A stretch of DNA of 62,517 nucleotides, counting the filler, from Collodictyon triciliatum (lineage: Eukaryota): NCBI GenBank assembly GCA_043381765.1. It is 40 parts of 40 records of this genome, joined end to end, with 100 filler letters (N's around TTAATTAATTAA, not from the genome) between each part and the next. Parts side by side here need not be neighbours in the genome. Positions count along the whole stretch, not along the records: positions 14,133 to 15,601 come from JBHJMP010010997.1; positions 15,702 to 17,170 come from JBHJMP010010998.1; positions 17,271 to 18,738 come from JBHJMP010010999.1; 37 more parts are not named here. One strand, 5' to 3'. Shown here piece by piece: positions 14,133 through 40,804 of the stretch. The position numbers and the translations under genes are program-made. The first letter of the stretch is position 1; the number at the start of each line of letters is the position of its first letter. The notes under the pieces were generated by a model. That model saw only the letters and a program-made list of their open reading frames with translations. It did no database searches and was not told where the DNA came from.

Positions 14133-14173
14133 AATTTTATTTCATTAAATAAATCTTTATTATCAACATTCAT
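14133..14173 (-). CDS. Start of next co-oriented ORF (MNVDNKDLFNEIK...), cut by contig end
   Basis: ATG 36 bp after the polymerase stop, preceded by the same 13-bp motif as the polymerase. Confidence 0.5.
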
Positions 14174-14208
14174 AATAAATATATATACTATTATATATAT
14201 TTATTTCT

Positions 14209-15447
14209 TTAAGTTAATTTAATATTAACGAACTTTTCCCCTTCATATTTAAAATCTCCTATGTTGTCACTTATTGATAAATAATCATCTAATGGAAATT
14301 TTGAATATAAACTGTCAGTATGAACATATACTATATTATTAATTATAGGGTTTAATATTTCTGTAAAATGTTTTCTTGAAGAACTATATAAAAAAGGTTT
14401 CATTCTTGGCAATGCTCCTTTATAAAAAAAAGACTTATTATATAATGTTATTTCATAGCCCCCACTATTCATCGGTTCTATTTTAAAATCTTTATTATCA
14501 TATATTATAAATTCATCATCGCTTTTTATTTTTTTAACTACTTTATCAGATTCAACTAAAGCACCAAATAATATATTTAATAGATCTTTTATAATATATT
14601 TTTGTTTTATGTTTTTCTTTTTTAAATCGTATAAATAAGTTACGTATTCGTTGAATATATCATTGCTATTAATACAATCTTTATTATCATATATCAAAGC
14701 ATTATATTCTTCATCCATATCTAAAACAATATTAAACCCTAGCTTATGAGCTTCCAATATATCAATATGTGTATATGTATTATTTTTATTTTGTTTAAAT
14801 ATTCCTGATTTATAATTACTAATAGAACATTTATAAATACCAATATTTATATTATTATAATCTATATCATTTAATTTATAAAATTTACCTTCTTTAATTG
14901 GTATTTTAACATTTATATGTGATAATACAAAAGGATAAAAGCTGTTTATATCATATGTATAAACTTTTCCTGAATATTCTTTTTTATGTTGAATGGCGCC
15001 TGTCACTGAATCTTCTAAAAAATTTGTTTCTAGTTCTGATTTAACCGGTGATATTATTTTATGTAGATCTTTATTAAAATCAAAAAATAATTTAATAGCC
15101 ATATTCTTAACTGAAGGATTAATAAATAAATTAATCGTTTCTTTAGTAATTTTTTTTAATTCTATGGCATCATTATAAAGTTGTTTATGACAATCAATAA
15201 TATTAATATGTTTATCCTCTTCTTTACAATATGAACAATATGAACATTTATTAACAATGTTATATTGTGTTTTTCCTGCCATTGAATCTTTTATTAGTTT
15301 ACGTCCTTTTATTAAATCTTCTTCGACTATAAACTTTTTATTACTTACTAAAAATAATACTTTATTATCTACAAATTCATAAAATAATATTTCTTTCTCT
15401 TTATATAAGTTAATGCCATATAAATAAATGTTTGTTTGACAATCCAT
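14209..15447 (-). CDS. Protein-primed family B DNA polymerase-like protein (Polinton/PLV/virophage type), 412 aa
   Basis: Motif A YDINSFYP, motif B KDLLNILFGAL, motif C VYVHTDSLY, C-terminal IGDFKYE. Intronless and extremely AT-rich. Confidence 0.88.
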   Translation of the reverse strand: MDCQTNIYLYGINLYKEKEILFYEFVDNKVLFLVSNKKFIVEEDLIKGRKLIKDSMAGKTQYNIVNKCSYCSYCKEEDKHINIIDCHKQLYNDAIELKKITKETINLFINPSVKNMAIKLFFDFNKDLHKIISPVKSELETNFLEDSVTGAIQHKKEYSGKVYTYDINSFYPFVLSHINVKIPIKEGKFYKLNDIDYNNINIGIYKCSISNYKSGIFKQNKNNTYTHIDILEAHKLGFNIVLDMDEEYNALIYDNKDCINSNDIFNEYVTYLYDLKKKNIKQKYIIKDLLNILFGALVESDKVVKKIKSDDEFIIYDNKDFKIEPMNSGGYEITLYNKSFFYKGALPRMKPFLYSSSRKHFTEILNPIINNIVYVHTDSLYSKFPLDDYLSISDNIGDFKYEGEKFVNIKLT

Positions 15448-15469
15448 AATATATAATAAAATATAAAAA

Positions 15470-15482
15470 TATTTCTTTAAGT
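15470..15482 (-). promoter_or_regulatory. Putative viral promoter motif ACTTAAAGAAATA (second copy at 14202-14214)
   Basis: Identical 13-mer 22 nt upstream of the polymerase ATG and 28 nt upstream of the next ATG. Confidence 0.6.
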
Positions 15483-17470
15483 CATTTTAATTTATTATTT
15501 TAAATTTATATTTTAAAATCGCCCCTTCCTTCCCTCCATTATTTAAACCAACCGACCGACCAACAAAAATATATTTTAGGGAAAAATGGGGGGATTTTTC
15601 CNNNNNNNNNNNNNNNNNNNNNNNNNNNNNNNNNNNNNNNNNNNNTTAATTAATTAANNNNNNNNNNNNNNNNNNNNNNNNNNNNNNNNNNNNNNNNNNN
15701 NTCACTCACTCACTCACTCACTCACTCACTCACTCACTCACTCACTCACTCACTCACTCACTCACTCACTCACTCACAGAAGTAAAAGATTCATTTTGCC
15801 CCATTCTGTTTGGCGCTTATTCGTAACGTGTCTTTGTGAAAATCGAAAATAATCCAAAAAATTTCACCTTTCAAAATGATATCGTTTTATTCGGTTTGAA
15901 TTTAAGATATATTTAGAATTGTACATCCTTTGAATCGAATATTTACTTTTTTTTTTTTTTTTAGCATTACTCGAAGTATAAAGATATTGAAATAATGAAA
16001 CTTTATCACTCTGATTTTCTTCTATGACTTCCTGTATAAAGGTTTCCACTAGATACAGATTTCATGATTCAACATCAATCTAAGCTAGGATAGACTAATC
16101 AAGATTATGATTTTCTAAATCTTGAAAATTTGATTGCAATAATATAGTAATTCATGAGATCTCACATCTAAGAGATCATGAAACGAAGAGGTGAGATACA
16201 TCAAATTAAAGCACCGTCAGAGAAACCACCTTAGTAGTCTTTGTAGTTGTGTCGCGAGATTAGCATGCATTATTCCCTTTAAATTTGTACAAGATTAGAG
16301 GGTCTGAACCCAGTTTGCTGATCTTCCTTTGCATGGAGCTACCTCGATTAGTTAGTGAATTATTTCTATAAATAGTAAAAGCCAAATGTCATTTAATCAA
16401 CAATATAAATATATAGATTAAAGACAAAATTAAATATATATCTGGTGTCAATTAAAAAATCAATAAAAGATTAGAATATACATAACAATTATTAAATATT
16501 ACGAGGTCAAGAAGTATCTATGAAAAAAAGACTCTGAAAGGATGCCGGATCGATTTTTAACATAAATAGTTCAGGATTATGGTTAATTGCATGACCAAAT
16601 ACTATATTTTCTTAATTGCTTTGCGTACATGCCCAACAATATATTCATGTTTCTACTAATCACTTATAAACTATTATGTAAATAATGGAAGGGATTCAAT
16701 CTATGTAATATTTCATCTGAAGGTAGACTTAAGCTAAAATAATTAACCTTTTATAGTTTTATATGCATGGTACCAACAATTCCAGAGTGTGAATAGCAAG
16801 CCATATGGAATGTTACACACGCAACGTCTTAAAAATCCTTGAAATTATCTAAATTAAGAATCAATGTGTTATTGAAACATCGAATGGCCATGAATCATGC
16901 TTTGTATTTGCTGTCCAAAACAAAACAAAAAAAGAAACTGTATAAAGTGAAGCGTCAATGACAAGAATCATCAAAATTCCAAATACTTTCAAACCTCAAT
17001 ATTGCAACTTGCAATTTATTTTGCCATGTGTCGAATCAAGATTCATTTTTAATCTATCGTAAATTAGCAATATGTAAAAACTGCTTGAAAATTACGATGC
17101 CATATTGAATTATTTTAATGGATTAATTTTAAACACTCAGTTATGAGCACAAAAAAAAAACAAAACAAAANNNNNNNNNNNNNNNNNNNNNNNNNNNNNN
17201 NNNNNNNNNNNNNNTTAATTAATTAANNNNNNNNNNNNNNNNNNNNNNNNNNNNNNNNNNNNNNNNNNNNACATAAAACAACATAAAACAACATAAAACA
17301 ACATAAAACAACATAAAACAACATAAAACAACATAAAACAACATAAAACAACATAAAACAACATAAAACAACAAAAGAAACAAAAGAAAACACTTTTTTC
17401 TTATTATGAATACATATCTTAATGATTGAATTCCATCTGATAAACACAAAGCCCCATCGGCGTCAACAAT

Positions 17471-39204: not shown

Positions 39205-40371
39205 GGAGCAGACTTCGTCGACGTTCAGCATAGTGGAGAGCCTTTGCGGGTCTTGTGTGAAGCAGACGTCGTCGACGTTCGGCATAGTGCACAGCCTTTG
39301 CGGGTCTTGCGTGAAGCAGACTTCGTCGACGTTCGGCATAGTGCACAGCCTTCGCGGGTCTTGTGTGAGGCAGACTTCGTCGACGTCCGGCATAGTGGAG
39401 AGCCTTTGCGGGTCTTGCGTGAAGCAGACTTCGTCGTGTTCGGGCATAATGGAGAGCCTTTGCGGGTCTAGTGTGAGGCAGACTGCGTCGTCGACGTTCG
39501 GCATAGTGGGAGCCTTTGTGGGTCTTGTGTGAAGCAGACTTCGTCGTGTTCGGGCATAATGGAGAGCCTTTGCGGGTCTTGTGTGGAGCAGACTTCGTCG
39601 TGTTCGGGCATAATGGAGAGCCTTTGCGGGTCTTGCGTGAAGCAGACTTCGTCGACGTTCGGCATAATGGAGAGCCTTTGCGGGTCTTGTGTGAAGCAGA
39701 CTTGGTCGTATTCCGGCATAGTGGAGATCCTTTGTGGGTCTTGTGTGAGGCAGACTTCGTCATATTCCGGCATAGTGGAGAGCCTTTGCGGGTCTTGTGT
39801 GAAGCAGACTTCGTCACATTCTGGCATAGTGGAGCCTTTGCGGGTCTTGCGTGAAGCAGACTGCGTCGTATTCCAGCATAGTGCAGATCCTTTGCGGGTC
39901 TTGTGTGAGGCAGACTGCGTCGTATTCCGGCATAGTGGAGAGCCTTTGCGGGTCTTGTGTGGAGCAGACTTCGTCGTGTTCGGGCATAGTGGAGAACCTT
40001 TGCGGGTCTTGTGTGAGGCAGATTTCGTCGCAGTCCGGCATAGTGGAGAGCCTTCGAGGATTGTGTGGAGCAGACTGTGCCGACGTTCGGCATAGTGGAG
40101 AGCCTTTGCGGGTCTTGCGTGTGAAGCAGACTTCGTCGACGTTCGGCATAGTGGAGAGCCTTTGCGGGTCTTGTGTGGAGCAGACTGTGCCGACGTTCGG
40201 CATAGTGGAGAGCCTTTGCGGGTCTTGCGTGTGTGGCAGACTTCGTCAGCGTCCGGCATAGCGGAGAGCCTTTGCGGGTCTTGTGTGGAGCAGACTGTGC
40301 CGATGTTCGGCATAGAGGGGAGCCTTCGTGGGTCTTGTGTGAGGCAGACTTCGTCGACGTTCGGCATAGTG
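39205..40371 (-). repeat. Same 54-bp tandem array, about 21 units (copy 2, inverted), sharing a ~95-bp unique leader with copy 1
   Basis: Reverse complement matches the copy-1 unit. 40387-40479 is the near-identical reverse complement of 1-93 (peptide SSRPATVVCNTQPLAQATQRGLTSTPA in both ORFs). Confidence 0.97.
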
Positions 40372-40804
40372 TGAGCGCGCTCGTGCGTGCAGGTGTGCTC
40401 GTGAGTCCACGTTGCGTTGCTTGTGCGAGTGGTTGCGTGTTACAGACGACAGTTGCAGGTCGACTCGACTCGAGACTCGATACTGCTTGGCGACCGACCG
40501 GCTGTGGCAAAAAAATTGTGTCGTGCATGCGAGGCGAGCGGTTGCCGAAGCCGCCCGCCTTTAATAAGGACGGAAAGAAAGGGTACGAAACTTGAATAAA
40601 CGGATAACCCTGATCTCCCAGGCTTAGCGTTACCGAAGTTTGCATACAACCTTATCCCGGCACTTANNNNNNNNNNNNNNNNNNNNNNNNNNNNNNNNNN
40701 NNNNNNNNNNTTAATTAATTAANNNNNNNNNNNNNNNNNNNNNNNNNNNNNNNNNNNNNNNNNNNNAAAAAGAGTCGCCTGAAAAAAAAAAAAAAAAAAA
40801 AGGG

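Follow-up and report, generated by a model that had tools for sequence, protein, structure and literature searches.

What kind of element carries an intact DNA polymerase gene of only 412 codons on a 1.5-kb contig of the Collodictyon triciliatum assembly (GCA_043381765.1), and is that polymerase as unusual as its motifs suggest? The window analyzed here is 62,517 nucleotides long, filler included, and consists of 40 short contigs of 1457–1473 bp, ordered roughly by length and separated by spacers of the form N44-TTAATTAATTAA-N44. Because these contigs are unplaced and were strung together to form the window, features that lie side by side in it are not to be taken as neighbors in the genome. 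The contig in question occupies positions 14133..15601 (1469 bp) between two of these spacers, and a sequence-only reading had proposed that its open reading frame (ORF) encodes a minimal replicase of a Polinton-like virus (PLV), a virophage, or a linear-plasmid-like element. Our analysis supports this proposal and narrows it. The ORF very probably encodes the catalytic subunit of the protein-primed replicase of a small linear dsDNA element from the mavirus/virophage–PLV assemblage. In the nomenclature of Wei et al. (2026, PMC13215967), such elements are called pMVREs and a polymerase of this type a palm-retaining truncated pPolB, where pPolB denotes a DNA polymerase of family B (PolB) that is protein-primed. 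Four lines of evidence carry this assignment, namely a phi29-type fold, a match to the mavirus polymerase, the gene neighborhoods of relatives, and an exonuclease domain reduced to a remnant.

The polymerase gene and its fold

The polymerase ORF is located on the minus strand at 14209..15447 and runs from ATG to TAA, with an in-frame TAA 13 codons 5' of the ATG. As had been described, it is uninterrupted over its 412 codons and contains no microsatellite, and the strong AT-richness noted earlier is borne out by the GC content of the contig, which at 20.6% is the lowest of the 40 (the remaining 39 span 28.0–56.2%). The palm motifs can be read directly from the sequence. Motif A, YDINSFYP (residues 165–172, nt 14932..14955), supplies the predicted catalytic Asp166, which a profile search aligned with motif A of phi29 polymerase. 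Motif B is KDLLNILFG (residues 287–295, nt 14563..14589) and includes Lys287, Asn291, and Gly295, while motif C is HTDS (residues 376–379, nt 14311..14322). In the profile alignment, His376 of motif C stands in place of the first Asp (Asp456 of phi29), and the second Asp is retained as Asp378. Across an alignment of 30 relatives, Asp166, Lys287, Gly295, Thr377, and Asp378 are invariant, and the whole set including Asn291 is invariant or nearly so. When compared with the pPolB consensus (motif A DxxSLYP, motif B KxxxNSxYG, motif C DTDS), the three palm motifs are all present, with His at the first Asp of motif C as a family-wide variant. The window protein has Phe in motif B where phi29 has Tyr and the majority of the relatives have Trp, and no tryptophan occurs anywhere in its 412 residues.

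Pfam assigned the protein to PF03175 (DNA_pol_B_2) with an E value of 3.8e-10 and 39.7 bits against a curated cut-off of 25.8, matching residues 18–302 to profile positions 83–391 of 468. An exhaustive HMMER search over 1.84 billion representatives recovered 1265 relatives at E ≤ 1e-3, 909 at E ≤ 1e-10, and 172 at E ≤ 1e-30. Since the Pfam score exceeds the curated cut-off and 909 representatives match at E ≤ 1e-10, membership in this family is far beyond chance. No second Pfam domain was found in the 412-aa protein, so it has no C-terminal superfamily 1 helicase. A PHROGs scan with the protein returned no family, tblastn against a phage collection returned no match, and scans of IMG/VR with the single protein and with an alignment of its nine-sequence subclade returned no relative. 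A cytochrome c3 entry at E 0.37, found in a single-sequence search of PDB sequences, was rejected as a chance match.

The AlphaFold2 model, built from 30 relatives, has a mean predicted local distance difference test score (pLDDT) of 90.7 and a predicted template modeling score (pTM) of 0.87. When the model was searched against the PDB with Foldseek, the nine top chains were all phi29 polymerase (E 3.4e-10 to 9.4e-9), and the next chain followed at 5.9e-4. Likewise, VIA-align superposed 342–346 residues on phi29 polymerase with Z values of 17.9–19.6, whereas every other PolB, RNA- or DNA-primed, remained at Z ≤ 9.5. The best solved structure is therefore phi29 polymerase (PDB 2pyj, 1xhx, and 2ex3; Z 19.6 over 344 residues), and a profile of the 30 relatives run against the PDB brought motifs A, B, and C into register with their phi29 counterparts, placing the His of HTDS on Asp456. 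As modeled, the fold is that of a phi29-type pPolB rather than of an RNA- or DNA-primed PolB, with TPR1 and TPR2 judged from the overall match. The structure search on which the sequence-only reading had staked its claim thus recovered a PolB palm of the protein-primed type and no normal exonuclease domain. The phi29 polymerase differs from the window ORF in its motif C, which reads DTD, and in having a thumb and an exonuclease domain that is active, and the identity between the two is only 13–14%.

Two of the viral models in BFVD tied for the first two ranks, namely an entry for a Harvfovirus sp. polymerase of 339 aa (E 4.1e-23) and the mavirus polymerase with its 617 aa (E 4.5e-23, TMq 0.75). 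Rank 3 (E 5.3e-13) followed about ten orders of magnitude behind. In the ESM Atlas, the nearest cluster is 73% viruses, and Preplasmiviricota is the most frequent label. The mavirus pPolB (Cafeteriavirus-dependent mavirus, UniProt A0A1L4BK92, 617 aa) is organized as terminal protein (TP), vOTU, and palm, or TP-vOTU-PALM (Krupovic et al., 2024, PMC11161782). The window ORF resembles it as a joint-best viral model match, in its exonuclease remnant, and in the missing first Asp of motif C. However, it is only 412 aa long, it has no fused TP or vOTU, and its identity to the mavirus enzyme over the structural alignment is only 20%.

These matches bear on whether the encoded enzyme could instead belong to a linear plasmid, mitochondrial or cytoplasmic, a reading that we regard as scarcely credible. 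The very low GC content would suit such a plasmid, as would the name of the Pfam family, "organellar and viral." However, in linear plasmid polymerases a TP is fused to the chain and the exonuclease domain is complete (PMC11161782), and the window ORF shows neither feature. Moreover, its top viral structure matches are the mavirus polymerase and a short entry from a giant-virus bin, some ten orders of magnitude ahead of the rest, and its relatives adjoin genes for an integrase, a superfamily 3 helicase (S3H), and a packaging ATPase. More generally, the pPolBs of Polintons, adenovirids, and linear plasmids are characterized by a full exonuclease, a TP and/or vOTU, and a length of ~900–1400 aa, whereas the window ORF combines 412 aa with an exonuclease remnant. 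One weak relative in the metagenomic data (L034 1257–5432, E 3e-4) encodes a 1392-aa canonical pPolB that covers the full Pfam profile at E 9.5e-86. This enzyme is of Polinton size and offers a useful contrast to the window ORF.

Motif C and the exonuclease remnant

HTDS and the missing exonuclease had been presented as peculiarities of this ORF. We tallied motif C in 178 stored family proteins, a set that includes the query and near-identical members of its cluster. HTDG was present in 114 of them, HTDS in 42, QTDG in 7, and other non-Asp variants in 11, with no match in 4 and DTD in none. As DTD occurs in 0 of 178, HTD is a trait of the whole family and not of the window ORF. Both features are in print as well. 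Mavirus PolB and others lack the first Asp of motif C and are described as "nevertheless catalytically active," and mavirus pPolB retains just a remnant of the exonuclease (PMC11161782). The "palm-retaining truncated pPolBs" of Wei et al. (2026, PMC13215967) similarly keep a palm with TPR1 and TPR2 and have lost the exonuclease. Since HTD and a vestigial exonuclease are published hallmarks of mavirus-type pPolBs, the two main surprises of the sequence-only reading turn out to be family traits, and their supposed singularity falls away.

The observation that the short N terminus shows no exonuclease motifs stands. VIA-align placed model residues 16–412 on residues 4–499 of the 575 residues of phi29 polymerase. 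Because the alignment begins at phi29 residue 4, a shortened N-terminal exonuclease fold is still present, in which ~125 residues align with the N-terminal part of phi29. Based on this alignment and on conservation, we delimit the remnant to residues ~16–140 (15028..15402, minus strand). At the other end, the chain stops at about phi29 residue 499, so that neither the final stretch of the palm nor the thumb has a counterpart. Among 30 compact relatives, no acidic residue before Glu140 is conserved at ≥90%, and the only positions before residue 140 that reach this level are Asn106 and Gly111. With only these two conserved, the exonuclease part is a remnant in which no catalytic set is conserved, and it is apparently inactive, as judged from the alignment. 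Hence, conserved catalytic residues are lacking, as had been suspected, and the fold itself persists in reduced form.

A Cys/His cluster, composed of Cys68, Cys71, Cys74, His80, and Cys86, lies within this remnant (residues 68–87, nt 15187–15246). The CxxC..H..C pattern is kept in eight of nine subclade sequences and Cys86 is invariant; the cluster may form a zinc site.

Another known truncation of the same architecture is the pPolB–S1H fusion ("Tlr1-like helicase") of PLVs and transpovirons, which is also a TP-vOTU-PALM derivative without the exonuclease and without the first motif C Asp (PMC11161782). This fusion carries a C-terminal superfamily 1 helicase (S1H), whereas the window ORF terminates 33 residues past HTDS.

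The loss of the first motif C Asp together with the missing exonuclease and thumb raises the question of whether the ORF is a dead or decaying relic, and an earlier paper of the same group, as recounted in PMC11161782, did read the motif C change as inactivating. We consider this explanation very unlikely. The loss of the first Asp is fixed across a huge conserved family, the Asp of motif A, the Lys of motif B, and the second Asp of motif C do not vary among the 30 aligned relatives, and such enzymes are now regarded as active in the literature (PMC11161782). Seven proteins make up the 90% cluster of the closest relative, and the longer of the contigs that encode them measure 14.3 kb (ENA), 9.3 and 5.1 kb (Logan), and 3.0 kb (NCBI/JGI). 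All seven are intact proteins of 412–414 aa with 90.6–96.9% identity to the window protein. Within this set, 50 of the 412 positions differ, but the 31 family-conserved positions are unchanged throughout. In addition, half or more of the sampled 31-mers of the contig were found in three sequencing runs from three aquatic or freshwater metagenome studies; runs with fewer than half of these words were not used as evidence, and no RNA run is listed among those that contain them. Taken together, the seven intact relatives, the unchanged conserved sites, and the aquatic runs indicate a circulating, selected gene and not a decaying relic.

Compact and long forms, the terminal protein, and the OTU protease

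The lengths of the family members are bimodal. In 73 long forms of ~600–740 aa, motif A lies at residue 341–480, and in 50 compact forms of ~400–440 aa, it lies at residue 133–191. The long forms have ~200 additional N-terminal residues with a conserved Cys motif in 65 of the 73, and one Cys and one His are invariant across 40 aligned sequences. Long relatives align with the window ORF only from their residue ~200–227 on, while the N terminus of the window ORF is common to other compact proteins.

Pfam did not recognize the OTU domain of the long relatives, and Foldseek gave only weak rows for it (E 0.02–0.16), so a wide VIA search was required. A model of one long N terminus (pLDDT 89.6) was compared with 48,161 chains, independently of Foldseek. 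Residues 115–218 matched OTU deubiquitinases, with OTU domains in seven of the eight best rows (Z 6.0–6.6), and residues 20–114 matched the little-finger domains of Y-family polymerases (Z 5.2–5.4); both sets of Z values are middling. Among the matched entries, 4ir1 and 1unn are given for the mavirus TP domain, 6ks5 for the mavirus vOTU, and 7y5m, 6dwx, and 4bop for vOTU domains in SI Table S1 of PMC11161782. As the N-terminal matches include these entries, we assign the long forms to TP-vOTU-PALM and the window ORF to PALM alone. The ORF starts at the exonuclease remnant and has an in-frame stop 13 codons upstream; thus, the ~200-aa TP and vOTU segment is not fused to it.

A profile of the TP region, built from 65 long forms, was run on loci that encode related polymerases. 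Small ORFs upstream of compact polymerases scored first-pass E values of 1.4e-7 in L012, 2.8e-4 in L006, and 1.5e-3 in L014. The corresponding ORFs of L001 and L028 were not significant alone (0.61 and 1.6, respectively), and that of L001 is 38% identical to the small ORF of L014 (E 9e-31). In total, a TP-like gene lies directly upstream in five of the six compact loci with sufficient upstream DNA, the exception being L010. A profile of the vOTU had no match in L001, L006, L012, or L014. The five small TP-like proteins share an invariant Tyr ~13–19 residues from the C terminus, which is a candidate priming residue by analogy with Tyr190 of PRD1 (PMC11161782).

A separate TP gene, as in L006, L012, L014, L001/L028, and L033, is also found for the adenovirid pPolB/pTP pair and for the Stylophora polinton (Krupovic et al., 2024). 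However, the adenovirid and Stylophora polinton polymerases keep a vOTU, inactive or active, as well as a full exonuclease, both of which are absent from the compact class. An adenovirid-like split, in which the vOTU remains on the polymerase, is seen in L033 alone. Its upstream small ORF is the strongest match to the TP profile (first-pass E 5.4e-14), and at 484–3162 an rve-chromodomain integrase is followed by this 201-aa stand-alone TP-like ORF and then by a polymerase that begins with the vOTU (E 1.6e-13). Judging from this gene order, L033 is an adenovirid-like split within a mavirus-like element.

A quick tree was built from 121 palm regions, drawn from metagenomic relatives only, after 51 fragmentary rows and 6 near-duplicates had been excluded. 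Compact and long forms are intermixed in this tree, and parsimony requires 13 changes between them, of which at least 3 are forced by well-supported branches; many of the forks are unresolved. The intermixing suggests that the TP and vOTU may have been shed several times independently. In the literature searched, whose scope did not extend to the supplementary datasets of Wei et al., no mention was found of a palm-only class with a separate TP. The terms vOTU and OTU have no occurrences in PMC13215967, and its sections consulted are silent on the TP and on a class without TP and vOTU. On these grounds we propose, tentatively and at somewhat below even confidence, that the ~400-aa palm-only pPolBs represent a widespread mavirus-type architecture in which the TP is a separate upstream gene, the OTU protease is lost, and a start motif, TTAAAGAAATA, is shared.

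The element, its gene starts, and its setting

The contig contains three reading frames, all on the minus strand and separated by gaps of 35 and 39 nt. Upstream of the polymerase, a frame at 15487..15600 comprises 37 final codons and a TAA stop, reaches the contig end still open, and may represent the C-terminal end of an upstream gene. Downstream, an ORF starts at 14133..14173 with ATG and 12 more codons and runs off the contig. Because nothing else identifiable is carried on the contig, neighboring genes were examined in relatives. The survey covered relatives at 25–39% identity, with 1 locus from IMG/VR and 33 loci from JGI metagenomes, one contig being common to both. A DUF5906/D5-type S3H helicase neighbors the polymerase in L001, L012, L025, L026, and L028, an rve integrase and/or chromodomain ORF in L002, L009, L026, and L033, and a GIY-YIG nuclease in L001 and L029. 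On its 18.3-kb contig, L001 additionally encodes an A32-type packaging ATPase and a DUF5901 protein beside large ORFs. The GC content of most loci is 0.19–0.31, low like that of the window contig.

This set of neighbors agrees with published elements. Wei et al. report the same genes for pMVREs and regard DUF5906 as specific to the mavirus group, and DUF5906 S3H with rve, chromodomain, and GIY-YIG marks pMVRE group 1. The truncated pPolB is likewise a concept shared with pMVRE groups 1–4, and pMVREs are most prevalent in freshwater, being reported from 49.5% of freshwater metagenomes and from 97 of 7041 eukaryote genomes (PMC13215967). Similarly, mavirus has a separate S3H helicase and an rve integrase (PMC11161782), which co-occur with the relatives of the window ORF, and low-GC endogenous mavirus-like elements carry a mavirus-type helicase and pPolB (Hackl et al., 2021, PMC8547959).

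Several related elements (L017, L020, L022, L023, L024, and L025, also L021 and L032) have a higher GC content of 0.35–0.44. In this group, a 613–614-aa long-form polymerase with motif C NTDG is obtained only if 7–9 in-frame TAG codons are read through; R, K, Q, or E predominates at these sites in relatives. When TAG is translated as sense, L020 contains 15 ORFs of ≥150 aa, up to 613 aa (e.g., 3060–4901), whereas translation table 11 yields none longer than 283 aa. This pattern suggests a host or element in which TAG is reassigned.

The neighbors also bear on whether the polymerase serves a capsid-less plasmid-like or transpoviron-like replicon instead of a capsid virus, which we consider unlikely. 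Some complete pMVREs lack structural proteins, e.g., transpovirons and a fungal lineage of group 1 described as "likely to be plasmids" (PMC13215967); the contig carries no capsid gene, and none emerged from the 39 other contigs. However, the A32-type packaging ATPase and DUF5901 protein beside large ORFs in L001 form a virion-type module, the Atlas neighbors are mostly labeled viruses, and absence from a 1.5-kb contig is uninformative. As for the contig that the sequence-only reading had named as carrying a major capsid protein (MCP), Pfam found no capsid family in nine ORFs on other window contigs, and the Atlas look-up of the ORF at 11403–11951 gave no usable result (recognition 2053, under the 2300 mark).

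In a small linear dsDNA element of the mavirus type, the polymerase would start synthesis from a hydroxyl of a separately encoded TP, the product in relatives of the small gene directly upstream, and the TP would remain on the 5' ends of the linear genome. Copying would proceed without proofreading, and unwinding would probably be performed by a separately encoded S3H helicase. Transcription would begin from a short upstream motif, TTAAAGAAATA, which is situated 22–28 nt before ATG and is common to distant relatives; by analogy with virophages, the transcription machinery that reads it would perhaps be that of a helper giant virus.

The motif was recognized as part of a 13-mer, ACTTAAAGAAATA, whose two exact copies are the best direct repeat of the contig and are located in its only two intergenic gaps. 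The first copy, at 15470..15482 (minus strand), ends 22 nt before the polymerase ATG. The second, at 14202..14214 (minus strand), overlaps the polymerase stop, and 28 nt separate its end from the ATG of the following ORF. Within the window, ACTTAAAGAAATA has three matches at ≤1 mismatch, two of them exact, and none of 100 shuffles reached three. The 11-mer core, TTAAAGAAATA, has seven exact copies in the contig and the 33 loci (254,034 positions, both strands), and six of the seven end 10–35 nt upstream of a same-strand ORF start (binomial p 1.3e-9 with all positions as background and 7.7e-8 with the non-coding positions). As the motif was discovered in the window itself, the calculation was repeated without its two copies; four of five remain, with p ~2.5e-5 from the same background. 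In L006, copies precede both the TP-like gene and the polymerase (543–553 and 940–950), in L007 a copy precedes the polymerase (195–205), and in L012 a copy precedes the TP-like gene (1273–1283). The distance to the start codons is ~16–30 nt in the window contig and these three loci. All four carriers encode compact polymerases, and their mutual identity is only 25–33%.

The position of TTAAAGAAATA is promoter-like, and by analogy it may be a signal for a helper giant virus, since in virophages and in endogenous mavirus-like elements, the associated giant viruses are indicated by promoter motifs (Hackl et al., 2021, PMC8547959). Its sharing suggests a guild of low-GC freshwater elements that use one common transcription machinery, possibly through a shared type of helper giant virus. 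Among the literature matches listed for the 11-nt motif, none concerned viruses of such kind, and the literature search found nothing on a mavirus late promoter with TCTA.

The low GC content and the aquatic relatives also raise the possibility that the contig lies outside the chromosomes of the organism, either as a free or episomal virus-like element or as DNA of a co-sequenced organism. We find this almost as probable as its opposite, and it is compatible with the mavirus-type identity of the polymerase. The contig has no host-like flank, and its GC content of 20.6% compares with 28–56% for the other contigs, some of which show eukaryotic features, e.g., ubiquitin, the start of a protein kinase, leucine-rich repeats, and microsatellites. 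Several studies of aquatic, freshwater, and other environments have also yielded metagenomes that contain near-identical DNA or protein. On the other hand, mavirus-like elements integrate and yet keep a GC content far from that of the host (Hackl et al., 2021, PMC8547959), pMVREs occur in the eukaryote genomes counted above, and if an integrated element gave rise to a short contig through its repeats, the appearance would be the same. By blastn against the whole window, the contig matched only itself, and the 39 other contigs had no match to any of 300 ORFs taken from the related loci. An inverted repeat at the contig end was considered as a terminal hairpin and rejected (z 1.16; 179 of 200 shuffles fold equally well or better). 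Two GC-rich contigs of the window, 1–1473 and 39205–40666 (53–56% GC), consist of long tandem repeats in which several frames are open on both strands; these are repeats, not genes.

Several points count against the assignment of the polymerase to a mavirus-type element. The 1469-bp contig consists of the polymerase and two gene stubs only, without an identifiable capsid, helicase, integrase, TP, or terminal repeat, and the TP profile had no match in the 37-codon upstream frame. The neighborhood evidence is limited to relatives of only 25–39% identity, and the placement among pMVREs derives from structure, motifs, and these neighbors, the tree comprising metagenomic relatives only. Furthermore, the activity of an HTD enzyme is predicted from a literature statement about other proteins, and the link of TTAAAGAAATA to a helper virus is drawn by analogy alone. 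Even so, the element remains very probably of the mavirus/virophage–PLV kind.

As a polymerase, the window ORF adds one more eukaryote assembly that contains a mavirus-type element and a further member to a family that is already known and very large. Modest additions beyond the literature found are the compact architecture that lacks TP and vOTU, the separate TP of its relatives, and the shared start motif. According to a published idea, the OTU protease serves to free the TP from the polymerase, and the compact class allows this idea to be tested in nature: if the TP has a gene of its own, the protease should no longer be needed, and in the compact class, it is apparently gone altogether. 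At 412 aa, the enzyme would be a very small protein-primed polymerase without a proofreading domain or thumb, which may be of interest for enzymology, and the shared start motif TTAAAGAAATA could link such elements to their helper viruses in freshwater data.

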